Part shown: positions 23,077 to 64,000 of the stretch, one piece after another
How positions within the stretch are numbered: the stretch's first letter is position 1
How the letters are laid out: each line of letters starts with the position of its first letter
Assembly (NCBI GenBank): GCA_964016885.1
Contig: OZ024740.1
Location: 144,646,001-144,710,000 of the forward strand
DNA: 64,000 nt
Direction of reading: 5' to 3'
From: Eledone cirrhosa
Lineage: Eukaryota
Notes under the pieces: generated by a model
Told to the model about the DNA's origin: nothing
The model's input: only the letters and a program-made list of their open reading frames with translations
The model's database searches: none
Translations under genes and position numbers: made by a program

Positions 23077-23270
23077 GCCTCAATATCAAAGAAAAAATAT
23101 TCTTTCATTATGAAAGACTCATTTTCTCTGTTTTGCTCTATGAGCATGTCACATGTGAACATGTTACAGAGCAAAAAAAACACACATGTATTTCCCCCTT
23201 TTTTTTTCTCATTTATTTCTGTTCCTTCCCACTCTTTATCTTTCTATTTTATCTTTTATTTCTAACTCTA

Positions 23271-30430: not shown

Positions 30431-30659
30431 GTTCTTCAGTTATTATTTTTAAGAAATCGTTATTATCAAAGCAATAATATTGAATATAGTAATACTTGCA
30501 GAAACACTATCGTCTGAGCAGTTTTCTATGAGTATGTATGAGTGGTGTGTGTACATATGCGTATTTTGCAATGTATACATAAATGTATGAAAAAGTAAAA
30601 CTGCATTTTTTACATATGAATTATATAAACTCACACCAACATATCTGATTTTGCAGTTT

Positions 30660-35708: not shown

Positions 35709-35750
35709 ATATATATAGATAGATAGATAGATAGGTGGATATAGATATAT

Positions 35751-40460: not shown

Positions 40461-40462
40461 TC

Positions 40463-40672
40463 GGCACTACAACGCTATTAGCTGTCAGTCGAAGCAGCCG
40501 ATGAAAGCAAAACATCGTTTATTTTCGTATTACTACCACGTGTAAGTGGAGTTACTTAAATGAAATTTTTTTTTTTCACGCGTTTTTTAATTTTTTTTTA
40601 TTAAAGCATATAGATGTAAGTGGAGTTACTTAAATGAAAATATAGGTGGCCCTTAAAAGGGCCAAATTAGAA
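40463..40672 (-). mobile_element. Truncated GGCACTAC-TIR MITE carrying a histone-type stem-loop
   Basis: TIR ggcactacaacgctattagctgtca; reverse complement aligns with ~62665-62907. Confidence 0.8.
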
Positions 40673-40734
40673 TATACCGCTGCGTTTTTACAGTTTTACT
40701 AGTTACACATACACACACACATATATATATATAC

Positions 40735-40817
40735 ACACGGTGTCCCCTCCAAAATATATACACACTTTGATTACTTTGCTGTTGAAGTGTGTATACATTT
40801 TTTGTGGGACACTGTGT
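40735..40817. mobile_element. Tiny Tc1-like MITE/hairpin
   Basis: cacggtgtccc..aaaatatatacacactt / aagtgtgtatacattttt..gggacactgtg. Confidence 0.65.
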
Positions 40818-40818
40818 T

Positions 40819-40857
<39 letters not shown>

Positions 40858-41198
40858 GGAAGGGAGAAATTTTTGGATGCTATACCTGACATAATAAAAA
40901 ACCAAAATACACCCCTAACATTTGTCGGAATATCAATCACGAGAGTAGATAAATAAATATATAAATACATAAATAAGAAATGATAGAAAAGGAAAAGAAC
41001 ATTATGTAATATTCCCAGTCACCCTAAATTTTCCCTAAATTTCAAAACCGGGAGGGGAAAGTCCGAGGGTTAAAATCCCAATGATGGTACCTCAATACTA
41101 GTGTATCCCTTCGCATTACAATTTAAAGCAATACACATGATCGCTTTGATGACTCTTATTCGTTTCTAATTGTCTCGTTTTTTTCTCTTCTTTCTATC

Positions 41199-41251
<53 letters not shown>

Positions 41252-41390
41252 AAAATCTTTCCCTCTATCTATCTCTTTCCCTCTCTATCTTTTGCCATAA
41301 AAACGATAATGATAATCAATTCAATTAAGAAATATATATATATATATATATATATGAAAAGTGTAATTTTCTACACAAAACGAAGGTTAT

Positions 41391-41942
41391 AGAGAAAATT
41401 GAGGTTGGTAATGGCAGATGGAATATATAAGAGACAGAATACTTTTTTGTGAGAAAACATAATTTTATAAGGTAAGGAAATAATAAAGGGTATAAAAAAT
41501 GACCGGTTTCGATGGGTCTGCAAAAGCCATCTTTTCAAATGTTGATTAATATTAAGAAAAATTAATAATACGAAGAGTTAAAATTTGAGACTTGAAAATT
41601 CAAGTATAAAATTCATTGTGGGATTTCATAGCAGTTTTCATCTAGGTAGCAACAACAGGTTGAAAGGGACACAGCAGTCAACCTGTTGTTGCTACCTAGA
41701 TGAAAACTGCTATGAAATCCCACAATGAATTTTATACTTGAATTTTCAAGTCTCAAATTTTAACTCTTCGTATTATTAATTTTTCTTAATATTAATCAAC
41801 ATTTGAAAAGATGGCTTTTGCAGACCCATCGAAACCGGTCATTTTTTATACCCTTTATTATTTCCTTACCTTATAAAATTATGTTTTCTCACAAAAAAGT
41901 ATTCTGTCTCTTATATATTCCATGTGCCATTACCAACCTCAA

Positions 41943-41950
<8 letters not shown>
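41391..41950. repeat. Near-perfect palindrome (273-bp arms, 14-bp spacer), probably inverted PLE pseudo-LTRs
   Basis: 41391-41663 is the reverse complement of 41678-41950 with one visible mismatch. Confidence 0.95.
41798..41845 (+). ncRNA. Minimal type I hammerhead ribozyme, U3-A8 core variant (mirror copy 41496-41543, minus)
   Basis: aacat TTGAAAA gatgg-cttttgcagac-ccatc GAAA CCGG TC atttt; palindromic stem III, GUC triplet. Confidence 0.65.
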
Positions 41951-42032
<82 letters not shown>

Positions 42033-42194
42033 ATTATTATTATTAATAATAATTTATTAAAATTAAATACCATTTATTCTGCGGCAGACAGCTTCATCTT
42101 CCCAGAATCGTAGTACTGGTCGTTATTGTATGTGTGTGTTTGTGCGTATATATATATATATGTGGTGTATATACGCATTCACATATTTAGAGGT

Positions 42195-42332
42195 AATATC
42201 ACGTGAACACAATCACGTGACAAATCACATTATTCTTTCAAAAGGAAAAGTTTGGCGCCATTTTTCTCCAGGGAATAGCGCGTCAACAAACGCAAGAGAA
42301 AAGAAGAAGCAAAAGATAAGAAAATGGTAAAT
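42195..42332 (+). promoter_or_regulatory. Putative promoter and ATG-only first exon
   Basis: TCACGTGA (42199) and TCACGTGAC (42213), YY1-like GGCGCCATTTTT (42254), AAAATG|gtaaat at 42324-42332. Confidence 0.45.
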
Positions 42333-42761
42333 AATATCAGTTTCCATTTATTAATATATTGTATATATATGTATGTATGTATGTATATATATATATATAT
42401 ACTTCGCAGACCAGACCCCTTCTTCCTCCCGTTAGACCTGTGCGAAATTCCTTCCCTGCTCACATTTCAACCAGGTTTGATGGTCTTTATTCTCTCGTTC
42501 ACGATTTCACCGAACTTAAATTCATAGAAATCTGGGACTTGTCTCTTTCTTCCTCACTTTCTGTTGCTTCACCATTTTGTTTGTTTACCCTCGCGTCCCT
42601 TTTATTTACGTGTCCCAACGACTTTTTTTAGCCGTTGCTCGCACCAACCGGAGGTATATGGTCTTTAAAGCGATGAAATGCCTATGATGGTTGGAATATC
42701 ACTGATGAAGGACAAACTTTTTTCATATGTAACCCATTTGCAACTCCGCAGCGCCCTTATT

Positions 42762-42814
<53 letters not shown>

Positions 42815-42817
<3 letters not shown>

Positions 42818-44850
42818 GAGAATCTAAATTATGTTAATTTTAAATCTAACCACCCCACTAACATTAAAAATGCTATAGTTAATAATATTGGAAAAAGAAT
42901 ATCAAACCTATCATCTAATAAAAATATAATTGATGCTAACGCCAATTACTATAATAATGCGCTTTCTAAAGCCGGTTATCCTGATAAAATCAAATACAGT
43001 AAAGAAACCAATCCTAGAAGATCTTACAGTAAAATAATTAATTATGATCATTCCAATAACATAAATAAAAGACCTAGATACAAAAATATAATCTGGTATA
43101 ATGCTCCTTTCTATATTTCTATTAATAATAATATTCCAAAATTATTCTTTAGTGCCTTAAATAAATGCTTCCCTCCCTCACATATCTATAGTAAAATATT
43201 TAACAAACATATAATAACATTTTCCTATTCCACCTCTTCCAACATCTCCAACATTATCTCTAAACACAACAATAAAATATTAAATACTAAATCACTTCCT
43301 TCCAACACTGAATGTCATAATAATAGCAGTAGTACTCCCGACGTCATTGTTAACTCTAGGCTAGTTTCTGCAAACTCAAATACGACGTCAAACGTAACTT
43401 CGTCAAATGTTCTTAATCCCAATCTAAATCAGGAAACTATTATTCCTATCGTAAATAACTTCTCCAATCCAATTCCTCCTATAGATAACACTAGGTTAAT
43501 AACTCTGTTAATTTCTCTAATCGCAATTGTAATTGCCCTGTTAAAAATAAATGTCCTCTCAACAACCATTGTCTTGAAAAAAAACTTAGTTGTTGAAGAA
43601 TATATGAAACTTAGATGTTGAAGAATATATGAAAGAACTGCTTGATTCTTCTGACTCCCAAGTACAGATATTTCTAAATCATTTACTTAAAGAATGGAAG
43701 ACACCTGTGATAAAACAACTTGTCAACTCTAAACAGTCGACCAAACAAACCAGTGCCAGTAATTCTAATAATCAACAAAAAACTCAGACACTACCATCTA
43801 AACTTTCCAACAATACAGAACCTTCCAAAAATATACCCATCTTTCTACCTTATTTCAATATTATTTATTATACATTATATAATACTAGTTACTCATTCTA
43901 TATCATTCCTATTTATCACTTTCCTTTCTTCCTCTTTTCTTTTAATTTCTAACCTCTAATCTGTACTTTTTCTTCCTAACTACTTCTCAATTCTTATTAT
44001 TACTCACCACAACATATCCACTCTTCCATCTTTTTTCATATCATTGGCCATAAAAATTATTATTACCTTTTAAATACTTTATAGCATTACCTTTAAAAAT
44101 CCTTCGTAAACATAAACATTTTTTTGACGTTAGATTATTCCTCCTCAGTTCATTATATTTTTCTCCCTTTCATGCTCGTCTGACTTTTACATATCACACA
44201 TCACAATACATAAAAACAAACTTAAACCCTAACTAATCTCCTTTATTACATTATATTATTACCATTAGAAAATACTTCATAAACATATATATTTTGATGT
44301 TAGAGTCTTCTCTTCCTTAAACACTATTTTCTTCTTTGCTTTCTGCGCTCATTTGTAAATGAACAATAATAATTCTTAGGGGTATAAAAACCCTAGAAAA
44401 TGCTATTTTCATCATTTCTAAAAATAGCAAAACAATTGATGCTTTGAATAGGGCCAAATAGAAGTCGTTAGACATGCCCAACCAACCGTGATGCCTAAAC
44501 CAATCAGCTTCAGTAATCCAGTGAAACTACACACCGATTGGTCGAAATACAGTTTGCAAAATATAGCATTCTGTAGCCGCTTTTCACTGTATATAAAGGC
44601 ACAAAATTTACCCATCTCATTACAGTTGAAAATTGTAAACTTGACTGTCACCACAGAATATGAACCTGAAGATTGCGAAAGCATGAAATTACTTGTTCAA
44701 TTAACACTTAACACTCTACCATACCATTTCATTCTAATACCATTATAATTTTAAAGGATTGTAAATAAAACGAGTAAATCAGACAAAGTTGGAATTCCTT
44801 TTATTAATATAATCTTCTATACACAATCATACACACCCGTTTATATTTTT
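42815..44850 (+). mobile_element. Penelope-like element fragment (RT thumb/linker, deleted endonuclease, 3' UTR)
   Basis: YVNFKSNHP..RISNLSS..YNNALSKAGY..KNIIWYNAPF..KIFNK..FSYS..CNCPVKNKCPLNNHCL; between (TA)n tracts. Confidence 0.88.
44661..44699 (+). ncRNA. Minimal type I hammerhead-like motif in PLE 3' UTR
   Basis: tgaac CTGAAGA t-tgc-gaaa-gca-t GAAA ttac TT gttca; stem I 5 bp, stem II with GAAA tetraloop, stem III imperfect. Confidence 0.55.
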
Positions 44851-44851
44851 T

Positions 44852-44926
<75 letters not shown>

Positions 44927-45159
44927 CTTTTAAGCTATTTTGTAGTATCTCTGTTCAGGAACACACCACTTATATTAAATTTATCTCCCTGGAGCTTTGT
45001 AAAAGTCTGAGAGATTGGCTACATATCACACATCACAATACATAAAAACAAACTTAAACCCTAACTAATCTCCTTTATATATATATATTTTTGTTTAGAT
45101 GGAAGACAAAACAAAGAAGATGAATACAAAGATGAAGAAGAGAAAGATAAAGATGAAGA

Positions 45160-45560
45160 ACCTCACTGCACCGCACCGCACAATACCGCACTGCACAACA
45201 CCACACTGCACCACACCACATCGCAGTGCACCGCACCACACCACATAAAAACATACAACACTACACCACATAACACAACACAACACACCACTCCTCACTA
45301 CTCCACTCCACATAAAAACACACCACAACACACCACTCCTCACTACAACACACCACACTACTCCATACCGCAACACAACACACCACTCCTCACTACATCA
45401 CACCACATAAAAACACACCTCACTACATCACACCACACTACTCCACACCACATAACACCACAACACAACACACCACACTACATCACACCACATAAAAACA
45501 CACCACACTACTCCACTCCACATAAAAACACACCACACTACTCCATACCACATAACACCA
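45160..45560. repeat. Degenerate (CACCA/CACTA)n pentamer tract; similar tracts at ~46687-46990, ~48295-48502, ~52310-52470
   Basis: Directly visible. Confidence 0.85.
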
Positions 45561-46686
45561 AAAATTTTTTCCTCATCTTTTTTTCATGCGTTATCAACTA
45601 ATCTGATCTCCAAGATGTTTGTTATTGACTCTCTCTTCATGGAAAACTTAGGTGGATGCACTTCTCTCATTTAACCCCAGAGTTTTCTTTAAGATTTTTC
45701 GTATGTTATCAACGAATATGACCTCCAAACCAGTTGGAAATGATTAGTTGTTCTAGAAAAAAGGAGGGGTAAAGCGGGTGGAAAAACCATTGTCGTTTTG
45801 TAGATATATACCCTAATGATTTTTCTTCGGTCTCCATTTGAGTGCTATCAACTAATCTGACCTTTTAGTTGCTCTGAATCAATTTTTTTTCCCTGGGATT
45901 TGGAAACTAAAACTAAATTAAACATAAAATTAAATCTAGCCCCAACCCTAAACTCTAAATCTAAACCAAACCAAACTAAATCTAAATATAAACATTACCT
46001 CAACCCTTAAACTAAACCCTAAACTATACCCCAACCATAAAACTAAACCCTAAACATTACCCCAACCCTAAAACTAAACCCTAAACTTTACCCCAAACCT
46101 AAAACTAAACCCTAAACTTTACCCCAACCCTAAAACTAAACCCTAAACTTTACCCCAACCCTAAAACTAAACCCTAAACTTTACCCCAACCCTAAAACTA
46201 AACCCTAAACATTACCCCAACCCTAAACCTAACCCAGGGAAATAAGTTGATTGGAAGCATCTAGGAGGTCAGATTAATTAATAGCACAGGAAATAGCACA
46301 GGAAATAGCACAGGAAATAGCACAGGAAATAGCATAGGAAATAGCATAGGAAATAGCACAGGAAATAGCACAGGAAATTAATAGCACAGGAAATATACCG
46401 AAAATGATTAAGTCCCACAACATATAAGTGGGGTGTAGATCTGCAAAACTCTTCCCTTCTCCCTCTCCTCTTTCTCCAAAGCTAGTTGTTTTTGACTGGT
46501 TTGGAAGTCATATTCACTGATTACGCATGAAAATAGAATCAAAGAGAAAATTCCGAGTAAGCAGGGATTATCCGGGTGAAAGGGGAACCACCTCACCCCG
46601 CCGTTTTCCTGGGGGGGAAAGTCAGTTTCAAGCATCTTGGAGATTGGATTAGTTGATAGCACATGAAAAATAGGATGAAAAAATTT
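45561..46686. mobile_element. Foldback module: long imperfect inverted arms around a telomere-like array
   Basis: ~45561-45898 pairs with ~46233-46686 through repeated TATCAACTAATCTGACCTCCAA-like motifs; 12-bp tandem aggaaatagcac at ~46280-46395. Confidence 0.7.
45905..46234. repeat. Telomere-like (CCCTAA-variant) array with a 31-bp higher-order unit
   Basis: taaaactaaaccctaaactttaccccaaccc repeated. Confidence 0.85.
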
Positions 46687-47016
46687 CACATCACACCACA
46701 TCAAATCACTCCGCACGCCATCGCATCACACCACGTTTCGTCTCGTCTCGTCTCGCCTCATTTCACCACGCCACGCCACATTTCACTATGCCACATCACA
46801 TTTCACCACGCCACGCCACATCACATCACATTTCACCACGCCACGCCACATGCCATCACACCACATGCTACCACTCCACCACACTCCACTACACCACACC
46901 ACTGTCCACTACACTAAACCACACTCCACTACACTACACCACACCACTGTCCACTGCACTAAACCACACCATACTATACTACACCACTGTCTATTCGACT
47001 GTTTTCTATTTCGTAG

Positions 47017-48250
47017 GTATGTCCAGTTACAGTAAGAGAAAGAAAGTTATTTCAAAGGATCTGAGTAAGTAAACACTTCATTGACCATCATTTTAAGCAG
47101 AATCTCAGTGTAGTTTTAAATTGACCTTTTCATATGATTACACCTCAGTCTTAACTTAATCACCTGTAGATGGATGCTACATGTAATGTTAAAATTAGTT
47201 AAACACTGTTTCCCCCTTCTCATCACATGTGGATGCTACATGTGTATTGTTAACATTAATCTAACGTTGTGTCCTCCCCCCCGTCTCACCATATCATACC
47301 ACACCACATCACACCATGTTGTACCACACCAGACCACATAACACCATGCTATACCATATATATATGAGCTCCCCACTCGTTATATTAACTGTATCTCCTC
47401 GGTCTTAACTTAATCACCTGTAAATGTAATGTTAAAATTAATTAAACACTGTTTCCCCCTTCTCATCACATCTGGATGCTACATGTGTATTGTTAACATT
47501 AATCTAACGTTGTGCCCCCCCCTCCCCCCGCCTCACTATATCATACCACACCACATCACACCATGTTGTACCACACCAGACCACATAACACCATGCTATA
47601 CTATATATATATATATATGAGCTCCCCACTCGTTATATTAACTGTATCTCCTCGGTGTTTCGTGAAAGTCTGAGAGATCAGCTATATATTCGTTTACAAT
47701 TTTTTTTAATATTTAGATGGAAAAGAAGAAAAAGACGACGAAGCAGACGACTAAAATGAAAATGACAACAAAGACAAAGAAGACACGGGAAACGAAGATG
47801 ACGAAAAGAAGAAGAAAGTATGATCTCAGTTCAGTGTAAACCTAATGATTTATAGATATGATCTTAGTTCAGTCTTAACCTAATGACCTGTAGATACGAT
47901 CTATTTAGGTTTAACTTAAACATTCAAAGATATTTGTATATACTTTTGTTGATGTTTGACATTGTTTTTTAGTTATGAAATAGCTTATAAGCTACATTAT
48001 AGGATCACAGTGCATGAGCACACTGTTCTTTAAATTAACTTTATCTCCTCAGCACTTTGTAAAGTCTGAGAGATAGGCAACATATATGTTTTACATTCTT
48101 TGTTTTTGGTATTTAGATGGCAGAGGAGAAGATAAAGGCACAGAAGAAGTCAAAGGCACAGAAGAAGTCAAAGGCACAGAAGAAGTCAAAGGCACAGAAG
48201 CAGTCAAAGGCACAGAAGAAGACAAAGAAAATGAACAAGAAGAACAATTA
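47017..48250 (+). pseudogene. Possible spliced mini-gene or pseudogene for a small basic/acidic protein
   Basis: Exon-like 47017-47064 (cgtag|..|gtaagt; MSSYSKRKKVISKDL) joins in phase to 47717-47817 (acidic, in-frame TAA); third acceptor at 48117. Confidence 0.35.
47143..47657. repeat. ~260-bp tandem duplication
   Basis: gtcttaacttaatcacctgta..gagctccccactcgttatattaactgtatctcctcggt twice. Confidence 0.88.
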
Positions 48251-48540
48251 TTATTACTATTATTATGTTATTATTTGTATTATTATAATCAAACTAAGCC
48301 ACACTACATCAACCTATACCATACCACACCACACTGACAAACATTATACCATACCACATTATCCAACACCACACTATGAAACACTGTACGACCTCACATC
48401 AGACCATGCTATGAAACAATATACCATACTACACTATACAACAATAGACAACACCACACAAGACTATGAAACACTATACTTTACCACACTATATCACACC
48501 ACTCGAGTTAGAGAGGATCAACTTTTTTCCTGGAAAGTAG

Positions 48541-51500
48541 AAAACCTAACTTTAAGCTAAAACCGAACTTTAAAAATAACACTTACCCTAACACTTGCAC
48601 TCACACATGCTCTAACAGTGAACTTAGCGCTAACATGAAAACTAACACAAACACAAAATCTGAAAACTAACATTAAATAGAAAACTAACACAAACACTAA
48701 CACTAAAACTGACACTAACACTAACCTGAACACCAGCACTAAAACTAACACTACTGTAAACACTAATACAAACACTAACACTAACCTGAACACTTACACT
48801 AAAACTAACATTAGCACAAACATTAGCCTGAACACTAGCACTAAAACTAACACTACCATAAACATTAACTCTGACCTGAGCACTAACACTAAAAGTAACA
48901 CTAACTCTAACCTGAAAACTAAGCTAACATTAACCTGAACACTAACATAAACACTAATGCTAACACTAACAGAAATACTAATGCTGACATTAACATAAAA
49001 ACAAAGACTAACGCTAACACAATCACTAACACTAATGGAAACATCAAACACTAATGCTAACAGAGATACTAACACAAATATTAACACTAAAACTAACATT
49101 AACACTAACATAACTTGAACACTAACACTAACCTGAACACTTACACTAAAACTAACATTAACCTAAACACTAGCACTAAAACTAACACTACCATAAACAG
49201 TAACACAAACACTAACACTGCTCTGAGCACTAACAGTAACACTAACACTACCATAAAAACTAACACTAAAAAAACACTAACACTAACCTGAACACTAACA
49301 CTAAAACTAACACGAAAACTGATACTAACCAGAAAACTAAGCTAACATTAACCTCAACACTAAAACAAACACTAACATTAACAGAAAAACAAAGACTAGC
49401 ACTAACACTAATGGAAACACTAACACAAACACTAACACTAAAACTGACACTAACACTAACCTGAACACCAGCACTAAAACTAACACTACTGTAAACACTA
49501 ATACAAACACTAACACTAACCTGAACACTTACACTAAAACTAACATTAGCACAAACATTAGCCTGAACACTAGCACTAAAACTAACACTACCATAAACAT
49601 TAACTCTGACCTGAGCACTAACACTAAAAGTAACACTAACTCTAACCTGAAAACTAAGCTAACATTAACCTGAACACTAACATAAACACTAATGCTAACA
49701 CTAACAGAAATACTAATGCTGACATTAACATAAAAACAAAGACTAACGCTAACACAATCACTAACACTAATGGAAACATCAAACACTAATGCTAACAGAG
49801 ATACTAACACAAATATTAACACTAAAACTAACATTAACACTAACATAACTTGAACACTAACACTAACCTGAACACTTACACTAAAACTAACATTAACCTA
49901 AACACTAGCACTAAAACTAACACTACCATAAACAGTAACACAAACACTAACACTGATCTGAGCACTAACAGTAACACTAACACTAAAAAAACACTAACAC
50001 TAACCTGAACACTAACACTAAAACTAACACGAAAACTGATACTAACCAGAAAACTAAGCTAACATTAACCTCAACACTAAAACAAACACTAACATTAACA
50101 GAAAAACAAAGACTAGCACTAACACTAATGGAAACACTAACACAAAATAAAACACTAACACTACTGTAAACACTAACACTAAAACTGACATTAATACGAA
50201 CATTAACCTGAACACTAACACTACCATAAACCACTAACCTGAGCACTAACACTAAAAGTAACATGAGCCCTAACCTGAAAACTAACACTAACCAGAAAAC
50301 TAAGTCAACATTAACCTGAACACTAACACTAACACTAACAAAAATGCTAACACTAACAAAAATGCTAACACTAATACGAAATCAAACACTAATACGAACA
50401 CTAATGGAAACACTAACGCCAAAGCTGACACTGACGAAGATGGCTATGCTGGCACAAACGCTAGCGCAAATGTTGACACAATCGCTTACGCTGACACAAA
50501 CACTAACGTGAATACTGATGCAGGTGCAAAGGCGAATGCTGACAAAGACTCTGACGCACACGCTGATGTAAATGCTACACAGACTCTAACGCTGACGTGG
50601 ACACTGACACAAATGCTCACGCTGATGTAAACACTAAAGCAAATGCAGACACTAATGCAAACACAGACGCAAATGTTGATGCAGATGTTAAAGCAAACGC
50701 AAATGATGACAGCGATGCTAATGTGAACCTTAACGCAGACGTAAACATTGACGTAGAAGCTAAAGGAAACACTGATGCAAACACTAATGAAAATGCTGAC
50801 ACAGACGCTAACACACGTTAACACAGATGCTAACGTAAACACTGATGCAGATCTTAATATAAACACTGACGCAGACGCTAACACAAACGCTGACAGATGC
50901 TAACACACGTTGACACAGACGCTAACGTAAACGATGACATAGAAGCTAACTTAAACGCTGACACAGACGCAAATGTAAACGCTGACGCTGATGTAGATGT
51001 AAATACAGACGCTGACGTAGAAGCTAACACAAACGCTGACACAGACACTAATGTAAGCGCTGACGTAGAAGCTAATGTAGATGCTGACGTAGAAGCTAAC
51101 GTAAACGATGACGTAGATGTTAACGTAGACGCTGACGTAGAAGCTAACGTAGATGCTGACGTAGAAGCTAACGTAAACGCTGACATAGACGCTAACAAAA
51201 CGCTGACGTAGTTGTTAACGTAGAAGCAGGCGTAAAAATTAGTGTTTACCCTTATCGCCGAAGCTGATCTCCAAAACGTAATTGCTGATACGGATTGCCA
51301 AAGCTAACGCGGACGCAAATGTTGAGGCAGTTTTGCCGGCGCTGACGTGTATGCTGACGCTAACGCAAATGCTGATGCGGACGCTAGGGCTAAGGCTAAC
51401 GCTAACGCTGACGCAAATGCTGAAGTTAACGCTTACATGGGATATGCAGACGCTGCAGTGATGCGGACGCCACAGGAAAGGTTAATGGAAACGCTAATGC

Positions 51501-52200
51501 TAACGGAAAACGCTGACGCAGACGTTACGGAAACGCTGACGTAGAAGCTAATGGAAACACTGACACAGACGTTAACGGAAATGCTGACAAAGACGTTAAA
51601 GGAAACGCTGTCGCAAACGCTAATGCTAATGTGAATGCTGATGCAGATGCTGACGCAAATGCTAACCCCTACATAAATGCAAACGCTGACTCAAACACTA
51701 ATGCAAATGCTGACGTGTACGCTGATGCAAACGCTGACACTGAGGGAAATGCTGACACTGACACAAGTGCTGACGCGGACGCTAATGATAATGCTGACTC
51801 AGAAGCTGATGTAGACGCAGGCACTGAAACAAACACTAATGCTAACACTAATGTTGACTCAGACGCTAAGGGAAATGCTGACACAATCACTATCACCAAT
51901 GCAGACGCTGACGCAAATGCTGACATAGATGCTGACACTTACGCAAACACTAAGGCTAATCCAAACACTAACGCAGATGCTAACACCAGTCTACATAGAC
52001 ACTAACACAAAAGCTTACATAGACGCTTATACAAATGCTAACGCTGAGGCAGACAGTAACGCAAACAGTAACTGTAAGAGTAACAGTTACAGTAACACTA
52101 CCAGTGACAGTAATGCTAACAGTAACACCGTCACTAACAATAAACTTACCATTAACAGTAAAACTTACCCTAACACTAACCCTAAATCTAACATTAATCC
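48541..52200. repeat. 3.7-kb degenerate hexamer array (AACACT grading to GACGCT/AACGCT) with an internal 735-bp duplication
   Basis: 6-nt periodicity throughout; identical ORFs 48794-49111 and 49529-49846 are offset by 735 bp. Confidence 0.9.
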
Positions 52201-52319
52201 AGAGAAAAAAGTCATTTGCAATCACATTTAAGGTCACTCTTTAAGATATAGAAGATAGGCATTACATTTTAATGATTTTAATTTAAAGAGAATCACGCTA
52301 TACGATGCAACACAATAAC

Positions 52320-53755
52320 ACACCACACCACACTAACCTACACTACACCAAACCAGATTATACCATACCTTGGTAAATTTATGATAGGTTTCCACTACAC
52401 CAAACTAAACCATACCAAACTACACCAAACCAAACCACACCATAACAAACTACACCATACTACATCACACCATGCTATTGAACTCAGTGTGAACATTTTT
52501 CTTCCTGCTTTTTTTGTCTTTTTTTTTGCCATACTTCACTATATGGTAAATTTATTACAGAACACCTACTCCTACCATTTACATAACACCATGGTATGGA
52601 CATCAATGTGACAAATTTGCTACCTGCTTTTTTTTTCTGGTTACCACCTCAAACTGACATCAAAGGTGCTTGCAAATGACTATTTTCCCACACATTATCA
52701 ATGAATATGACATGGGAATCTATCGTTTACAATTGGTTTCCATTTCATAACTTCACCAAACCAAACCAAACCACACCATACCAAATTACACCATACTACA
52801 TCACACCAAGCTATTGATCTTGGTGTGAAACATTTTCTTCCCGTTACCTTTTTTTTTTTTTGTGTGTGTGCTTACCACCCAATCTGACATTAAAGGTGCT
52901 CCCAATTGACTATTTTTTTTCCACTTATCAATAATTATGACATGGAAACCTGTCGAAAATGACTATCTTTGTAGAAACTACACCAAACCACACCATACTA
53001 CATCACACCAAAATATTGATTTTGGTGTGACCAATTTTCATCTGGCATTTTTTTTTTTTTTTTTTTTGTGCTTGTGCTTACCACCCAATTTGACATAAAA
53101 GGTGCTCGCAAATTACTATTTTATGCACATATTATCAATGGTTATGACATGGAAACCTGATGAAAATGACTAGCTTTGTAGAAAAAAAGAGCGAGGATGT
53201 GGGTGGAAATACCATTTACAAAGCTAGCCATTTTTTATTGCAGCGGAAGTCATATTTTTTGTTAATATGTTAAAGCATAATCCACTGCGAGCTTCTTGGA
53301 AGTTGATAGCACATGCAAAAATAAAGGAAAAATTTTTTTCTAACATAAATCAAAGTGGAAATTTAAATCCTCACTTATAACAAAGCACACCACAGCACAT
53401 TAATCTATCCCAATCCACACCATAACCATACTTCACCATATGGTAAATTTATTACAGAACCCCTACTCCTACCATTTACATCACACCAATGCTTGCAGTT
53501 GACTATTTTTTTCACATATTATGAATGAATATAACTTTGAAACCTATCGTCAATGATTAGCTTTGTAGAAAAATGAAGGCAGAAAGTGGTTGGAAAAACC
53601 ATTCACAAAGCTAGTTATTTTTAATTGTAGTGGAAATCATATTTGTTGTTAATATGCTAAAAAAATAGTCAAATAGTCAATTGCAAGCATTTTGGAGGTC
53701 GGATTAGTGGATAGGACATAAAAAAACAAAGCAAAACAAATATTGTCTATATGTT
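52320..53755. repeat. Diverged ~200-bp modules with hairpins, related to the foldback arms
   Basis: tcacaccaag..cttggtgtga hairpins; ttatcaat.aatatgac motifs; ctagctttgta..tacaaagctag stems. Confidence 0.7.
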
Positions 53756-54261
53756 CCTGTGGAAAGTCGGGTCTTCTGTATTACTGTGTGACACCAGAGG
53801 TCATGGTCGTGTGTCATTGCCCTTGAGAGGTGCAATTGGGAAAGGTCGGCTTAGAAATATTTACTTCTGCGTTCACAGATTGACTTTTTTTAGTTTCAGA
53901 AGATCCCATTAAGGGTGAAAGCAGCCGATTCTTTGCTTAAACTTTAATCTGTTATATTAACAAATATTTGCTCTACGGTTCTTATATATTTGATATATAT
54001 TTCTCCTTATCGAGTGCTCTTTGGATGTTAGTCTTCAAATTCATTATTATTACTATTTGGCTCCCTTGATTGAGTACTCTATTTACTTATATTCATCATG
54101 CAGAAACATCTGAATATTTCTACAAAGAACATACCTGTACCAAGCGGGAAGAAATACCTAAAACTACATCTCCACGAACTGCTCTACGGTTCTTATATAA
54201 TTGATATATATTTATCCCTATCAAGCCCTCTTTGGATTTTAGTCTTCATATGTATTATTAT

Positions 54262-54298
<37 letters not shown>

Positions 54299-54384
54299 TG
54301 TGTGTGTATATGTTAGATTATATATGTGTGTGTGTATATATTAGTTTATATATATGTGTGTATATATATATATATATACATATT

Positions 54385-54750
54385 GAGAGCATTGGCCTTG
54401 CAATCGAAAGGTTGTGAGTTCAATTCTCACACCGGGTGATGTGTTGTTTCCTTGAGCAAGACACTTTATTTCACATTGCTCCAGTTTACTCAGCTGTAGA
54501 AATGAGATGATAGGACTGGGGTCCCTATCATTCCACTGCAAAGTGGTCGTGGAGGTGCCACAGCAAAAAAGCACCCAGCCCACACTGTAAAGTGGATGTG
54601 GAGGTGCCACGGGAAAAAAGCACCCAGCACTCACTGTAAATGAGGTTGGTGTTAGGAAGGGCATCCAGCTGTAGAAATCAAGCCAGAATCAGTTCCTGTC
54701 CCACCCTTGCAAGCATGGAAAAAGTGGACGTAAAATGAAATGATGATGAA
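54385..54750 (+). mobile_element. tRNA-derived SINE with RTE-PHD-type 3' tail
   Basis: B-box gagttcaattc, ccttgagcaagacac core, gttggtgttaggaagggcatccagctgtagaaa and (GAT)n tail shared with the LINE 3' UTR. Confidence 0.82.
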
Positions 54751-54751
54751 T

Positions 54752-55082
54752 GCTCCCAGCTGTGGTCACCCCATAGTATCAAACTAACGATGGAGCTTGA
54801 AGCAATCCAATGAAGCTACACCAAGAAGGTTGCCACGATGAAGGAGATAAACTACTGGGAGAGTCTAAAAGAACTGAAACTCTACTCCTCGGAATGAAGA
54901 TGGGAGAGATATGTAATGATATACATATGGAAAATCCTGCGGGGACTAAGACCAAACTTTCGCATTGAGAGCTGGACCAATTCTCGAACAGGACGTCACT
55001 GTGTGGTACCAAAGGTCACGTCTTCCACATCTAGAATCAGGAGCAGCTATTGCAATAGCCTGGGGTTCAAAGGCCCTCAACT
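54752..55082 (+). mobile_element. CR1-clade LINE fragment
   Basis: SQLWSPH..LEAIQ..YWESLKELKLYS..IYIWKIL; inverted relative of 57670-58312. Confidence 0.8.
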
Positions 55083-55154
55083 TGGTTTTCAAAATTTAAA
55101 TTTGTGTTTCCTATTCATCAATGCTTCAAGCAAGCTATAAAACTCTGTTATATT

Positions 55155-55537
55155 TCATCATCATCATTTTATGTCAGTTCTTCTACGCTAGCATGGGTTG
55201 TCCTGTTGTGGGCAGTGTCCGGTCGGCTGACCTTGTCTTGCTCATATGGAAACTGATTCTGTCTTGATTTCTACAGCTGGATGCCCTTCCTAACACCAAC
55301 CTCATTTACAGTGAGTGCTGGGTGTTTTTTTTTTTTGCCGTGGCACCTCCATGACCACTTTGCAGTGGAATGATAGGGACCCCAGTCCTATCATCTCATT
55401 TCTACAGCTGAGTAAACTGGAGCAATGTGAAATAAAGTGTCTTGCTCAAGGAAACAACACATCACCCGGTCCGTGAATTAAACTCACAACCTTTCAATTG
55501 CAAGCCCAATGCTCTAACCACTGAGCCATGTACCTTC
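55155..55537 (-). mobile_element. SINE with RTE tail, inverted copy of 54385-54750
   Basis: Reverse-complement similarity; A-box tggctcagtgg. Confidence 0.82.
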
Positions 55538-55544
55538 TATTGTT

Positions 55545-56232
55545 GGCAATGTTAGGTCACGTGACCATGTCTTGCTCATAAAGAACTGATTTTGGCTTGG
55601 TTTCTACAGCTGGATACCCTTCCTAATGCCAAGCTCATTTACAGTGAGTACTGAGTGTTTTTTGTTGTGATTCCTCCACGACTACTTTACAGTGTGGACT
55701 GGGTGTTTTTTACCGTGTCACCATCACGACCACTTTACAGTGTTTCGGCCTGTTCTCATGAAAGATATATTGGCGGGTGGGATGGAGTGGTGCATACTGT
55801 ATGTATATATCAGCCTTGGCCTGGGCCCGTGGGAAGTTGGGGTTTCTGTATTACCTCATAATGCCAGAGATCTTGGTCCTGTGTCATTGCCTTTCAGAGG
55901 TGCAATTGGGCAAGGTCGGCTTTTATCACTTCATCTCAAGTCTTTCTGGGACTTTATGTAGCTGTCATCCTTCATACGAATCACATGTCCATACCAACAT
56001 AATCTCCTCTCCTGCACACAATATTTGATTCCTCTTATGCCTAGTTTCTCTTTCAGTTTGTTTATGCTTTACTGTTCGCGTATATTACTATTACACATCC
56101 ATCGGAGCATACAAGCTCATTCCTTTCTAATCTACGCAAGTCTTCTACACACAGCGCCCAGCTCTCACTACCAAGCAACATTGCCGTTCATATGCACACA
56201 TAATACAGTCTACCTTTTATTCTGAGGGAAAA
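55545..56232 (-). mobile_element. Decayed RTE-PHD 3' fragment
   Basis: Matches family C-terminus and 3' UTR. Confidence 0.8.
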
Positions 56233-56285
56233 GCACACACACACACACACACATATATATATACACACACTCACATATATATATA

Positions 56286-57262
56286 TACTAGCCGAATTAC
56301 CAGCGCCTTGCTGCGTTTCACTCATTTCTTTTGTAAGAAAATGATGATTGATTTTAAATCAGTGATATAATTTATGGAGAAAAACTAAAATATAATGCAT
56401 GAAAAATTGGAAAACATCATTTTTTGTAATATATCAAATCAAAATTGCATTATTAAATCTTATTCTTATTTTGTTTCTTGTAAATAATTTTTTTCAAAAT
56501 ATCAATTGAAAACTTTTGTGAATAGGCATCATATCTTGTCATTTACCTATGATTTAAGTTTCATATAAATCGAAAGGGAAAAGTTTTCAGCGGGGTTTTG
56601 TACCCCCGGGAACCCTAATAGGGGGTTTAACCACCATTAAGGTGTCTTATAGTATTGAAATTTTGTGAATAGGCATCATATCTCTTCATTTATCTATGGT
56701 TTAAATTGCATATAAATCGAACCGAAAAAATTTTCAGCGGGGATTTTGTGCCCCCTGGTGAACCCTAATAGGGGGTTTAACCCCCATTAGGGTATTGTAA
56801 TTTTATTGAAATTTGCTGAAATGATGTGAATAGGCATCATATCTTGTCGTTTACCTATGGTTTAAATTGCATATAAATCGAAGGGAAAACATTTTCAGCA
56901 GGGGTCTGTGCCCCCTGGTGAACCCTAATAGGGGGTTTAACTCCCATTAGGGTATTTTAATTTTATTGAAATTTGCTGAAATTTTGTGAATAGGCATCAT
57001 ATCTTGTCATTTACCTATGGTTTAAATTTCATATAAATCGAAGGTAAAGTTTCAGCGGCGGTTTTGTGCCCCCGATGAACCCTTTGATTAAAATGAAATA
57101 TACTTATACAAGTACCCTGGGCAATGTAGTTTCAGAATATATATGTTTATGGGGGTCTATCTCCAAAACCATAGGAGTTCGTAAAATCTTGTTCCATTTA
57201 TTGGCCAAACTTTTCACTATAGGGCGTTTAACCCCCATTAGGGTGTCTTAATATTATTGAAA
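56286..57262 (+). mobile_element. Helentron/DINE-like element with internal ~150-160-bp tandem repeats
   Basis: Start ACTAGCCGAATTACCAGCGCCTTGCTGCG; units tgtgaataggcatcatatct..cctaatagggggtttaa from ~56517, 56664, 56826, 56985. Confidence 0.7.
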
Positions 57263-57266
57263 TTTG

Positions 57267-57300
<34 letters not shown>

Positions 57301-57669
57301 CACAAACACACACACACATATATATATATACACAAACACACACACATATATATATATACACAAACACACACACATATATATATATATATACACAAACACA
57401 CACACATATTTATATCTTTTAGCAGAGCATTTTAATATTGCCACTCACTGAAAACCCTTTGCTTGTTTGGAATAAATGAATCTTGAAAATTAGGAGTGCC
57501 TGTCAGTGTGTGTGTTTGTCTACTTAGCATCAATTTACTACCCTCCCCTACCACCAGAAAATGTATAAATACCACGATATTACATTGACAGTCGGCTTTT
57601 CTGATGATTTCCTCCGAATGAAACAGTTCTAGTCCTGTTGAAGCCATTTCTATATTAAATATATATATA

Positions 57670-58312
57670 TACTCTTTTAGCTGTTCCAGCCATCTGGCTG
57701 AGACCATGATTGGGCACTGCCCTTGTTGCTACACATTCTATCTCCAGCCTGTGTTGGCTGGCCATTGATGTAAGAGGGGGTTCGTTGCTGCTGCCCTTAG
57801 TTTACCTTCGTACTGTGATGTGGGCTCATCCTGGATAACAGGGTGTCGAGAAGTTTCTTGAAAATATCCACGGCCACACCATGTAGATCTCTCAAATCCC
57901 TCGGCAGTTTGTTGAAGAGTTGAGGGCCTTTGAACCCCAGTTATTACAATATCTGCTTCTTGTTCTAGATGTGGAAGACGGGACCTTTGTCACCACACAG
58001 TGACGTCCTGTTCGGGGGTTGGTCCCGCTCTCAATACCAAAGTTTGGCGCTAGTCCTTCCAGGATTTTCCATATGTATATCTCTGCGTATCTCTCCCGTC
58101 TTCGTTCCAAGGAGTAGAGTTTCAGTTCTTTTAGCCTCTCCCAGTAGCTCATCTCCTTCATCGTGCAATCCTCTTGGTGTAGCTTCGTTGGATTGTCTCA
58201 AGTTCCGTGGTTAGTTTGATACTATGGGGTGACCACAGCTGGGAGCAATAGTCCAGGCGGCTTAGGACAAATGGCCTTCATAGTATCAACATGGTCTCCC
58301 GGTCTCTTATAT
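57670..58312 (-). mobile_element. CR1-clade LINE 3' fragment
   Basis: MSYWERLKELKLYSLERRRERY..YIWKILEGLAPN. Confidence 0.85.
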
Positions 58313-58489
58313 AGAAAACCTCAAATAAAAAGTCAAGATTTGTTTCGATTTAACAGAGCAGAAAGAATTCGCGTCAGAATATTCCAACCAATCCAGCCTA
58401 TATCAGCTGAATAAATATGTATATGGAGATATATATATATACACACCCACATGCACATATATATACACACACACGCACGCGCACACACA

Positions 58490-58850
58490 CATACATACAT
58501 GATGGCTGCCCCCTCGTTATCGAGTATGGCCATTGCACGATATACCATTATTAATAATTATTAATTAATTCTATCGTGCAATGCCTGTGCATGAAGATAT
58601 TTTTTTTAATGAGGAAGACTGTGCACTGAGCCAATCCCACTCTCTGAGCGACAGTAGCTATAACCCGAAAAGAAGAAAATATCAACATCATCGGTAACTA
58701 CTGAGCCGCAGGTTTTATATCGGAGTTATCCCAGTTTCCTGAGTTGCCTTCTTCTAGAAGAATGCCCTGACAAAGGCTAGGGGTCCTTCACTCCCAGTGG
58801 TTTAACCGCGCGATCAGGTGTCCAGCCCAATTATTTCTATGTCCCCGCGC
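58490..58850 (-). mobile_element. Non-autonomous RTE derivative (5' UTR-like region joined to 3' end)
   Basis: Minus: gggcattcttctagaagaaggcaactc..tataaaacc, then gcaatggccatactcgataacgaggggg.cagccatc(atgt)n. Confidence 0.5.
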
Positions 58851-58929
58851 ATGTACATACACATGCACCCATGTATATACACATATACATATACATACAT
58901 ATGTACATGTGTATATACATATTTACACA

Positions 58930-59125
58930 CTTTTGGATGGCCGTTGACTCTTATGAGATCTTCCGCCCTTTGTCAGGTTTTGTTTTTTGTCCTGCAGGGT
59001 GTCCAAAATCCCCCTCCTCACCAAGTAAACTTGGTGGGGTTGCCGGTTTAGTCGCCGACGACCCGACCATGCGACAGGTTGTACTGGGTTAAATGTTACC
59101 AATAGCAGTCAAGAGTGACCCGACA
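58930..59125 (-). mobile_element. Short interspersed repeat; related pieces at ~2615-2760
   Basis: Shared acccagtacaacctgt.gcatggtcggg..ggacac.ctgcagga and gagtcaacggccatccaa. Confidence 0.6.
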
Positions 59126-59126
59126 T

Positions 59127-61560
59127 ATATCCATACATACATACTACATAATGCTGCAAACTCGTGTTCAAGTATTGCCATCGCCCGATAAAATGTTCAC
59201 AAATGTGACTCTTTAAACCAGCCAAACTTTAGGCTCCCCCGAAACCTTCCATTGCTTTGTTCTGGCTGTATGTTCACATGTATCTTTTAAGACCTCCCAT
59301 GCTTGTACATTTCTTACACCTTTTCAGATCATGATCTACATGAGGTCTACTGATATGACTTTGTTCATGTCTAATCAAACCAGCTTTGCTCAGGCTGACT
59401 CGACCACAGTGCTGGCAAACCAGATGATGTTCAACAGCAGGCAGTTCAGAACAGTCTCAATCCTCACCTTCCTTTTCAGTGTTAGGTGTTCTCTCCGACA
59501 AGTTTCAAAGTGTTCACCACCTGACTTGATCAAACGTCTCCACTTCACACAATCGTCAGCCATTTTCTCCCATTCGTCAGATGAAATTCCAGCACAAGCC
59601 AAGTTGCCCCTGATACAGTCCCGGTACCGCCTTTTTGGTTTATGTGGTGGTCTCCTTCCTTCACACAGTTCTCCATAGAGAAGTTGTTTTGGAATACGAT
59701 CATTAGATATCCGGACCACGTGACTGCACCACCTCAACCGATACCGAAAGATTATGCTCTCTATAGTCATGCACCTGCTCCGTTCTAGAACTTCCAAATC
59801 ACTGGCGAACATTTTCCACCACACCCCAAGTAACTTATGAAGAGATTGTTGGTGAAATCTCTCCAGATCCTTGAGGTGCTTTCTGTATGTGACCCATGTT
59901 TCACAAACATAAAGTAAAGAGGAGACGACACAAGTCAGATACACTTTCACCTTGGTTTTGATAGTGATACCTCGTCTGGACCATAAACGTTGATGCAGCC
60001 GTCCAAAAGCATCACTGGCTTTCTTGATTCTTAAGGATATTTCATTATCATGTGTGCATGAAGTGTTCAACGTACTACCAAGGTAAACAAACTTGTCAGC
60101 AACTTTTAGCCTCTTTCCGTACACGTACACACTTGGTGCAGTGTACTCGTTTCCAGGTACTGGCTGATACATCTCGACAGTCTTTTCCAAGCTTATTGTG
60201 ACGCCCTAAGTGCTGCAAGCTGCAGAAAAAGAGTTCATAATATGCTGCATGTCACTTTGTGAGTATGCAAAAAGATCGCAGTCATCTGCATACAAAAACT
60301 CACGGATTATAGATGTTAAAACCTTTGTGCTTGTACCAAAGCGCCTGGTGTTGAACAACCTTCCTGAAGTGCGATACCTGATGTAAACCCCATGAGAACA
60401 ATATTTGAATGCCATGAGAAACACTATCGTAAAATATAAGGAAAACAGAGTTGGAGCCGGAATGTCCTTCTGCTTCACTCCATTTTCAACTGATATTGGT
60501 TCAGAGATGCTACCACCAATACTGACCAAAGCCTTCATGGAAAAGATGCAGAATCTTCTACCCTACCTTGGATTTTTTTTCCACAACGCAGTTCGATTGA
60601 CAGTGTCAAGTCAACAAAGACCTGGTAAAGGTCCATACATTGTTCGATACACTTTTCTTGCAGCTGCCGAGCAGAAACGATCATATCCACTGTTCCTCTT
60701 TCGTTTCTGAACCCACACTGCTACTCAGGCAACACATTCAGAGCAACTCTTGGGATCAATCTATCGATCAATATTCGACACGACTTTACCAACTACTGAA
60801 AGAAGGGATATGACATGATAATTGCCACATTTGTCCTTGCCGTCCTTTCCTTTATGGAGAATCACCATGAGCGCATCCCTCTTGTGGGACATTCTCATCT
60901 TCCCACACCATTTTCATGAGGTCAGTCAGGCGCTGCGTGAAGTTTTCACCACCACACTTCAAAACCGCTCCACTCAGACCATCCATGCCAGGAGACTTAC
61001 CACAGTTCAGCTTATGCACAACAGAAGTCCCCTCTGCAAGAGAAGATACATTAGCCATCTCATATGCTTCACTGGTTCAATAGGAATGGAACAAATGAAA
61101 TCATCATCAACCTGGTTTAAGAGCTCATCAAAGTGATCTCTCTATCTGCCGAGTGTCTTTTGGGTCACGCAGTAATTGCTTGCCATCTTTCGATCTCAAA
61201 GGAGCCACTGGAGAGCTGAAAGGGCCATACACCTCTGTGAGTAGAAAGTGCGGCAGTTTCACATTGTTGCCGTCAGATGCCACTTGAACTTCATCTGCTT
61301 TGTTGCTCCACCAGGTATTTTGCATAGCCCTGAGTTTCACCTACACTTCCTTCTTTACCTGTCTGTAACGCTCATAATTGTCACCAACAGAGCTACCACC
61401 TTTAAGAACTGCATCAAGTGCCTTTTGTTTTCTGTCTAGCAGAGCCTTGACCTCCTGGTCATTCTCACCAAACCAGTCCTTGTTTTCTTGTGACAAAGCC
61501 AAGGACCTCTGCTGAAGCCTCATAGACCGAGCTCCTGAAGTCCTTCCAGTTGTTCTCATA
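59127..61560 (-). mobile_element. RTE-1/BovB-like LINE, decayed, with C-terminal C2H2 zinc fingers
   Basis: NGVKQ..APTLF, FLYADD, FVYLGSTL, LRWCSHVVR..RIPKQLLYGEL, CQHCGRVSLSKAGLIRHEQSH. Confidence 0.9.
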
Positions 61561-62284
61561 CACGCATACATACTTACATATATACATGTATACATACATG
61601 CATACATCCATCCATACATACATGTATACACACATACATACATCCATCCATACGTGTATACATACATACATACAATGGTTAAAGTGTTTGATTGACGACC
61701 ATAAGTTCATGGGTTCATATTTGGGACCGGGTAGTTATTGAATCAACCTGATATCAATGTTTATTATACAGCACACTTCCTCTTTGGTATAATATGACAC
61801 ATAGTAATATCTAACATAGTACCCATCTAATCTGTTATATGATTTACCTTTCCTCTGTGAAGGCACATGCCTTAGGGGTTACGGTACTGGACTAACCATT
61901 ATAAAGTCATGGGCTCGTTTCTTCGATCCTGCAGCATGTTGCGTCCTTCAGTAAAATACTTTAGTTCGTGTAGCATCTTCTACCAGGACTTGCGGCAGAC
62001 GGATAATATCAGTAATGGAAAAAAACTTGTTTCATTAGTATGACCTGGAAATCAGTTCCACTCTATTTATCTTCTTTATTAAAGGCAATCAACTTATTTT
62101 TTATTTTATTCTTTTTCTTATTTTTCCCTGTTTGTTAAATAAATTCCAAAATATCGAAATTTTGTAATAAAATTTCCATAAAAGTTAATGTTTACAATAC
62201 AATAAAATGTAATAAAATGTATTGAAGTCGACGAAATGTGGACCTTCATTTTTGAAAGATGGATAATGCTATAAGCAGACCTTA

Positions 62285-62522
62285 CAATATTGTACCACAA
62301 TTTTCCTTTGTGCAAAAGTGGGCAGCCGAATTTAGGAAAGGATAGGGGATTCTTGAAGATGACCCAATGTCTGGACGTCCTACAACTGCCACTACCGAAG
62401 AAAACATTGATCTCAGTACTGCAACACCGATGGAAGAAGTGTGTGGAACGCAAGGGAGACTATGTTGAAAAATAAACCTCATTTGGTCACATTCCATGAG
62501 AGTATCTTTGTCAACCCTCGTA
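62285..62522 (+). mobile_element. Internally deleted mariner transposon remnant
   Basis: VQKWAAEF..LEDDPMSGRPTT joined to LQHRWKKCVERKGDYVEK*; terminal CCCTCGTA. Confidence 0.85.
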
Positions 62523-62557
62523 TCTATGCGCAATATACGTAAAGATACAGAATTACG

Positions 62558-62907
62558 GGCACTACAACGCTATTAGCTGTCATATTTGTTGGTGAAAAAA
62601 ATTTGATTATAAAACTTAAATTTATGAATGACTTGTTTTCTACATTGATAACCATGACTTGTTTTCTAATTTGGCCCTTTTAAGGGCCACCTATATTTTC
62701 ATTTAAGTAACTCCACTTACATCGATATGCTTTATAACCAAGACTTGTTTTCTAATTTGGCCCTTTTAAGTCTTCCCCCTCTCTCTCTAAAAAAAAACGC
62801 GTGAAAACTCCACTTACGCGTGGTAGTAATACGGAAATAAACGATGTTGACGAGTGACGTCACCGCCTGTTTTCCACTGGACTGACAGCTAATAGCCTTG
62901 TAGTGCC
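62558..62907 (+). mobile_element. Complete 350-bp MITE with 25-bp TIRs carrying a histone-type stem-loop
   Basis: GGCACTACAACGCTATTAGCTGTCA (62558-62582) / TGACAGCTAATAGCCTTGTAGTGCC (62883-62907), 24/25; no clear TSD. Confidence 0.88.
62673..62691 (+). terminator. Replication-dependent-histone-type 3' stem-loop motif (also 40645-40663, minus)
   Basis: GGCCCT-TTTA-AGGGCC-ACC: 6-bp stem, 4-nt U-rich loop, ACC flank. Confidence 0.6.
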
Positions 62908-64000
62908 ATATTTTCATTCTAAAAGAATTGCAAACAATTTGTAATGTTATTTATACAACTGTAAATAAACAAACTTAAAGACTCGAGAGAAATTATGATA
63001 AAAAAACAAAAAAAAACTCATTATAATGCAAAATAACGTTGGTATATCATTTAATATGTTAAAATCGTTATTTCTTTTTATGTTATTAAATGATTTAAAA
63101 ATATTAAACAATATCTATTGAATATATGTTAAAAAGTATATTGACTGGATGGTCAATATACGCCTTTGTGCTTTTGTTGTTTTTTTTCTATTATGATGGA
63201 TTATTGAAACATAAAAACTTAACAAATATGTTTTTGTAGCAGCACTTATACATATATAACAGTTTATAAACTGAAATATATTTCCTTGTTTCGCCATTTC
63301 CATTTCAAATTTACATATTACTTTAGAATCATTTTGACGTGTTCATAAATTAGGAATTAACTTTAATCAGTGCCTAACTAAACGCATTTTAAAAATGCTC
63401 ATAATTGTTAATATGAAGTCATCAGAAAATAAAATCAATAGTGCTAGTAATAAAATATTGTTTTTATTTTCATTTAGACAGATATCCATGTTATAAATTG
63501 ATACTATCTACATACGGTGTCAACGCAATTTTGTTTCATAAAATTACTAAAATTTGGTTACAAAACATGGAATGGATTACTTTAAACTTTTTTCTTTTAC
63601 TTTGTGAAATTTTAAAATGCTGAGTTTAAGATTCTGTTTTTTTTTTAAATCAATGCAAAAAAGCTTTAAGTTTTTAATTTAAAAATTGCCAAATTCTGAA
63701 TGTCTGATCTTCAAAACATACAAATTTGAAGACCGTTTTAACTGGAATCTATATGGTGAGGATAAAACAATATAGTTTCAAAAAAAAAGCATCACAAAAA
63801 AGTTAGAGACGTTTTTTTTTAATCCATGCTTATACGATCAATTCTTTGTGACAACACCACCATGTCTGCATCGCCATACAAAATTAATAGTAAAATTGAA
63901 TATAAACTTATTTATATTCAAATATATTTTCGGGGAAAAACTTGATCGTGTAATTTATGTTGGCTCTCATAGTAGGTATACTTTTAAGACCTACACCGGT

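Follow-up and report, generated by a model that had tools for sequence, protein, structure and literature searches.

Merlin transposons have terminal inverted repeats (TIRs) of 24-462 bp that start with 5'-GG and produce target-site duplications (TSDs) of 8 or 9 bp, and they are listed as abundant in Octopus bimaculoides (PMC8101967, available part). The family described here resembles Merlins, as characterized in that part of the source, in its 5'-GG TIRs, 8-bp TSDs, DDE_Tnp_IS1595 transposase, and internal tandem repeats. It differs in forming units that measure 20-25 kb (as much as 48 kb, probably through later insertions) and in having a host histone 3' end, recognized by its sequence, in its arms.

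Other transposons share some of these features. Pack-MULE and Pack-CACTA elements have a host gene fragment between their TIRs and are mobilised in trans, and Pack-MULEs are given a size of 1-7 kb, the Merlin units here being far larger (PMC6431247, available part). The Pack-TYPE elements are MuDR or CACTA, whereas here the transposon is a Merlin, the host is an animal, and a 3'-processing signal is present in both arms. An extra internal TIR, as found here, is also seen in MULEs with multiple TIRs (PMC3310237, available part). The En/Spm elements of Chondrus crispus, at 16-20 kb, are likewise DDE elements with TIRs and TSDs that exceed 15 kb, while the word "Merlin" does not occur in the available part of the review of natural cut-and-paste elements that describes them (PMC6431247). 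In contrast to En/Spm, the cargo of the Merlin is made up of repeats and broken retroelements, not extra genes, and its transposase is a single 302-aa terminal ORF.

Histone mRNAs have been termed the only known non-polyadenylated mRNAs (PMC4604434, available part). The 3' end that replication-dependent histone mRNAs carry (RF00032, SLBP/U7) is similar to the Merlin arm in the hairpin, the ACC, and the downstream sequence, which is as in the host H4 gene. The Merlin arm differs in that its 5' flank has been replaced, the loop lies 137 nt from a stop codon that is not that of a histone, and AATAAA is present upstream.

A single giant element in the window

The window (the whole stretch of Eledone cirrhosa DNA that was analysed, 64,000 nt) contains GGCCCTTTTAAGGGCC at exactly two sites, 62673-62688 (+) and 40648-40663 (-). 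The mean number of matches to the 16-nt hairpin was 0.08 per window in 100 shuffles, compared to the two observed. Both hairpins have a 6-bp stem, a 4-nt U-rich loop, and ACC, and both score 34.0 bits with Rfam Histone3 (RF00032; E 4.7e-6), which is exactly the gathering cut-off. The sequence-only reading of this DNA had proposed a genuine histone stem-loop in a family of TIR DNA transposons, and the score agrees with that. It had also noted the lack of a histone coding sequence nearby, and none was found in the window by tblastn with H4.

That reading described two copies of a TIR element with an unchanged loop. The loop is identical at the two sites, but they are the two ends of one element. 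The 8 bases outside 40463 (the left end) are the same as the 8 bases outside 62907 (the right end), forming an exact 8-bp TSD, and therefore the window holds one element of 22,445 bp. The proposed 350-bp TIR element at 62558-62907 did not survive a search of the species' own 3.0-Gb genome with that segment (874 candidates, 40 scored, 30 fetched). The sequence to the left of 62558 is common to 30/30 matches inspected, extending for more than 1.5 kb in most, and the right flanks vary. Because the left flank is conserved in all 30, 62558-62582 is an internal TIR and not the end of an element. A TSD was sought around 62558-62907 and none was found, and with the left flank conserved as well, a stand-alone 350-bp MITE was rejected. 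At the 40463 end, the outer flanks vary among 30 fetched genomic left ends. The features are as follows.

40455..40462 (+): left TSD, 8 bp, same as 62908-62915
40463..62907 (no strand): non-autonomous giant Merlin element of 22,445 bp lacking a transposase, with TIRs at both ends and an exact TSD
40463..40488 (+): left TIR, 26 bp, begins GG; variable flanks in 30 left ends, 303 exact genomic matches
40603..40663 (-), inner limit approximate: left-arm segment, H4-derived by arm alignment, facing outward; stem-loop at 40648-40663 (Rfam 34.0 bits)
41391..41950 (no strand): foldback insertion, 560 bp, 97.5% self-complementary (self-BLAST), unmatched in the other copies examined
44356..57082 (no strand): cargo of tandem repeats and retrotransposon fragments, in collinear blocks common to transposase-carrying 22-26 kb copies (BLAST between TSD-bounded copies)
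59390..60562 (-): broken reading frames as cargo (ORFs), common to most right-end copies, no Pfam match; presumably LINE-like, from motifs
62300..62532 (+): cargo fragment (translation), common to right-end copies, no Pfam match; likely a mariner deletion fragment
62558..62582 (+): internal TIR copy; left flank conserved in the matches examined
62673..62735 (+): right-arm segment, H4-derived by its match to H4 L255/L036 (62/64) and by Rfam; stem-loop at 62673-62688, ACC, and downstream sequence with AAGT at +17
62759..62770 (+): second loop, truncated, produced by tandem duplication of 86 bp
62882..62907 (-): right TIR, differing from the left TIR by one mismatch; flanks vary, and the same end is found 3' of Merlin transposases
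62908..62915 (+): right TSD, 8 bp, same as 40455-40462

The truncated loop at 62759 lies 86 bp downstream of the first, in accord with the tandem duplication of about 86 bp suggested earlier. No transposase was found in the element by tblastn with the family transposase. A Pfam scan of its 49 ORFs, which short host exons could escape, gave no family over the cut-off; one weak match below the cut-off was disregarded. Of 22.6 kb of the window element, 15.2 kb are covered by matches to one or more of six other TSD-bounded copies. Outside the element, the window has several repeat copies, 78-93% identical, at 5760-7373, 21049-23080, 26054-26949, 30659-32215, and 33686-35710, which we take to be an RTE-like LINE.

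The Merlin family and its transposase

PF12762 has 150 scored matches genome-wide, and one subset of these sits between TIRs of the window element's type. The family transposase is 302 aa long, matches DDE_Tnp_IS1595 (PF12762) with an E value of 6.7e-19, and has three catalytic blocks, at residues 148, 210, and 246. The most similar proteins in the database, at 63-85% identity, belong to Octopus bimaculoides and O. sinensis. Cysteine pairs (CPSC ...) are present at the N-terminus of the transposase at L149:2407-3312. The transposase copies and the window element have the TIR and arms in common, and the window element has a 26-bp TIR starting with GG at both ends and an exact 8-bp TSD. By these sequence features the family is Merlin, and its past activity is read from the TSDs. 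The superfamilies hAT, MULE, P, and Helentron were set aside once the TIR proved to be shared with a Merlin transposase. Another Merlin family (L310, G000:C11:53.551-53.554 Mb), with a protein about 37-39% identical, forms a divergent inverted pair and has no loops.

The TIR has 303 exact matches in the genome, of which 100 were listed. When 36 pairs of facing neighbour ends were chosen by hand, 26 had an exact 8-bp TSD (two of these fall within (AT)n and carry no information) and four had a TSD with one mismatch. The other six had no TSD and were discarded as probable ends of different or nested elements. Target duplications were found in 22 of the 27 hand-paired ends more than 15 kb apart, with sizes of 17-48 kb. 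Four transposase-carrying copies of 22-26 kb have 16-23 kb in common pairwise and are largely collinear, which puts the size of the mobile unit proper at about 20-25 kb; elements above this, up to 48 kb, probably contain later insertions. In many giants the transposase is terminal and follows two damaged TIRs arranged head to head.

To our knowledge, these units exceed the sizes of known Merlins. A literature search, which left most subscription papers and Repbase outside its range, found no paper on giant Merlins. Several TSD-bounded giants on G000 C1-C4 and at L272-L289 have a terminal transposase, about 23 kb of repeat cargo, and a loop-less far end. Smaller forms also occur: at L141:2754-6034, L144, and L145 there are head-to-head palindromic Merlin dimers of 2.8-3.3 kb with two divergent transposases and up to four loops, and these transposed as units with 8-bp TSDs.

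Origin of the stem-loop

The genome has 12 full-length H4 matches, and the host H4 protein starts MTGRGK. With the count beginning at the first G in the stem, the window arm is identical to the H4 gene L255/L036 in 62 of 64 columns, and L255 is the best match among 11 histone loops scored. The differences are one deleted base and one substitution at loop position 4, a position that is variable among host histone genes. The parent H4 locus is at G000:C7:67.458 Mb. H4 paralogues also have downstream bases in common with the transposon arm; since this downstream sequence is common to other H4 paralogues, it is native to histone loci, and the transfer went from gene to transposon. A sister family of foldback MITEs (family B), about 600-1000 bp long with its own 8-bp TSDs, retains the native 5' flank and about 350 bp downstream of H4, and one MITE (L034) keeps the final 27 coding nt of H4 plus UTR. 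Judged by sequence identity, the arm segment is a 3' end captured from an H4 gene of the host. As in Pack-TYPE elements, the TIRs enclose a piece of a host gene whose parent locus can be identified.

There are 608 exact loops genome-wide, compared to the 12 full-length H4 genes. The suggestion that a transposon family spreads stem-loop sites therefore holds at the level of DNA. The native 5' flank is present at 66 of the exact loops (family B), and the family-B loops are the best candidates for real SLBP binding. Foldback MITEs that retain the native 5' flank and bear two outward histone loops separated by about 46 bp (L032-L060, mostly at G000:C18 4.9-12.7 Mb) have identical flanks in many copies, a sign of spread within a larger repeat, and they make up most of the genome's Rfam Histone3 matches. 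At G000:C2:321.566-321.572 Mb (L142/L253) an H2A-H4-H3 group is found between two family elements, one inserted about 60 bp past the H3 loop. No paper on a transposon with a histone stem-loop was found in the literature searched, which likewise did not extend to most subscription papers or Repbase.

When 44 transposase sequences were placed in a tree, all 34 rows with a loop fell on one side of a branch with 100/100 support. On the other side are six rows whose arm is visible but loop-less, and four in which no arm is visible. The tree is rooted only at its midpoint, with no outgroup, and its bootstrap is not fully settled. The conventional 1.2-1.9 kb Merlins of the lineage are loop-less, as are 28 of the top 30 PF12762 loci, which mostly belong to a distant Merlin family. 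This distribution suggests that the loop was gained once. Within the loop-bearing clade, the loop is on both sides of the transposase. Branch lengths indicate that the lineage is too young for a test of selection between clades.

Position and flanks of the loop

The sequence-only reading had predicted an autonomous partner with the loop in sense orientation 3' of the transposase stop. Such partners exist: 30 of 42 transposase 3' ends examined have a sense loop downstream, mostly 137 nt after the stop. Sense orientation is weak evidence, being nearly automatic, because an inverted copy of the loop lies upstream of the transposase in the other arm. The spacing from stop to loop is 97-497 nt in the 30 ends and 24-40 nt in host histone genes; the mode of 137 nt is about four times that of the host genes and falls outside the 25-60 nt described as critical for regulated histone mRNA stability (bioRxiv 10.64898/2026.10.14.759114, available part). 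AATAAA is found upstream of the loop in 27 of the 30 ends, a count whose weight is reduced by the frequency of this word in AT-rich DNA. Loop-bearing copies have this AATAAA, and loop-less sisters lack it at the corresponding position (L149:3316-3450 compared with L294 and L298); its origin may coincide with the capture or postdate it. Among 88 ends picked by exact TIR alone (from the 100 listed of 303), 55 have an outward loop, two have only an inward loop, and 31 have no loop within 350 nt. The loop-less ends include the far ends of TSD-bounded giants.

The 5' flank of the loop has changed. The window arms have TTT at -3 to -1 before the stem. In all 30 transposase ends A is absent from -1 to -3, while 22/22 host histone loops have A at -2 or -3, and the minimal SLBP site with wild-type affinity includes two 5' adenines (PMC10388802, available part). 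The U at -1 lengthens the arm stem to 7 bp. On the other side of the stem, the sequence-only reading had seen no purine-rich U7 downstream element, and here the comparison with histone genes tells against that caveat. What follows the stem is native H4 gene sequence, kept in the arm with one base deleted. AAGT follows the stem at +17 in the arm and at +13 to +17 in 15 of 22 host histone loops. In the host histone genes at L251-L266, AAGT at +13 to +17 is often accompanied by a word similar to GATATG or GATGTG near +35. These words are candidate downstream elements, and they are not purine-rich in the vertebrate manner. The host encodes an SLBP gene. The one candidate U7 snRNA (L292, G000:C3:314686447-314686503, -) has a word resembling an Sm site and scores 29.7 of 34 bits, below the cut-off, and was not accepted. 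Four sequence runs considered as RNA evidence were also put aside, as their contigs are of unrecorded kind and one covers an H3-H4 spacer evenly, as DNA would.

The loop is not more conserved than its flanks, contrary to what the earlier proposal of a functional loop had anticipated. In the 53 ends, out of the 88 picked by exact TIR, that span the core, there are substitutions at 18 of 838 loop bases and at 18 of 2259 flank bases, with one subfamily-diagnostic site omitted. With GC matching, the rates are 2.9% for the loop and 1.7% for the flanks (p 0.30), and no compensatory changes of stem pairs were found among the 53 ends. Copies retrieved through their resemblance to the loop region were excluded from the count as biased. 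Decay among inserted copies says little about selection in the active lineage, where the power of this comparison is low.

Cargo or working 3' end

The family is an unusually large Merlin with histone 3'-end cargo, and histone-type processing of its transcripts is improbable. The loop in the arms is most likely passive cargo that was copied along with them. Some observations count against passive carriage: the loop persists in all subclades of the loop-bearing lineage, it is perfect and followed by ACC and native AAGT, the kept piece being close to a minimal processing cassette, and the host has SLBP. The active lineage might use this cassette as a working histone-type 3' end, with some transposase mRNA lacking poly(A) and linked to S phase or SLBP-rich oocytes, but we regard this as unlikely. 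The sense loop 3' of the stop in 30/42 ends, the exact stem-loop with ACC and AAGT at +17, the single gain followed by the largest expansion of the lineage, and the SLBP gene of the host are consistent with such a role. The loss of the 5' adenines of the minimal SLBP site (PMC10388802, available part), the 7-bp stem made by U at -1, a spacing far beyond 25-60 nt (bioRxiv 10.64898/2026.10.14.759114, available part), the upstream AATAAA, the mirror copy upstream of the transposase, and loop conservation no higher than that of the flanks all argue against it. With such a role, the transposase mRNA would be the first non-histone mRNA processed by SLBP/U7, from a 25-kb cut-and-paste element timed to S phase, and we doubt that it is.

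The outward loops could also act without controlling the transposase, as weak terminators or SLBP decoys on read-through and antisense RNA that starts within the elements or on host introns, limiting foldback double-stranded RNA. The predominance of outward loops (55/88 ends, with two inward only), the native 5' flank of the 66 family-B loops, and the excess of the 608 loops over histone genes would fit this role, but a single arm duplication gives the outward orientation by itself, loop-less ends also transpose, and the comparison of 53 ends shows no selection signal, making it quite improbable. Transfer from the transposon to the H4 locus, or chance convergence of a GC hairpin, is largely refuted and extremely improbable. 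Merlin copies do insert beside histone genes (L142/L253), but H4 coding sequence lies inside a MITE, the downstream sequence is common to several H4 paralogues, and loop-less sister Merlins exist.

If the loop is passive cargo, as we prefer, its history may be reconstructed from sequence identity, with the order of capture, foldback, and enlargement being provisional. One Merlin derivative would have captured the last codons of H4, the 3' UTR, the loop, and about 350 bp downstream. Foldback or copying from arm to arm would then have placed the fragment in both arms, facing outward, and later deletions would have cut it to the loop and about 50 nt, with the native 5' flank replaced. A damaged inner end may have forced the use of a distant TIR, giving units of 20-25 kb, which transposed and left TSDs. 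The window copy would have lost its transposase, and each of its ends has a loop arm. For the transposase mRNA, the prediction is an end made by ordinary polyadenylation, at the AATAAA some 66 nt upstream of the loop.

Significance

The presence of 608 exact histone stem-loops in a genome with about a dozen H4 genes is a trap for Rfam-based histone annotation, even if the loops are passive. The loop variants, which number in the hundreds and include some that retain the native 5' flank and others that do not, are a natural set for studying what confines SLBP/U7 processing to histone genes. If it is true that the loop ends the transposase mRNA, this would break the rule that only histones use the SLBP/U7 pathway, and S-phase timing would mean transposition from replicated DNA, which raises copy number. 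One lineage of a 302-aa Merlin transposase has on many occasions mobilised units of 20-25 kb, which are considerably larger than the natural cut-and-paste elements in the available part of the review (PMC6431247). The mobility of giant Merlins bears on genome expansion and on vectors for large cargo.
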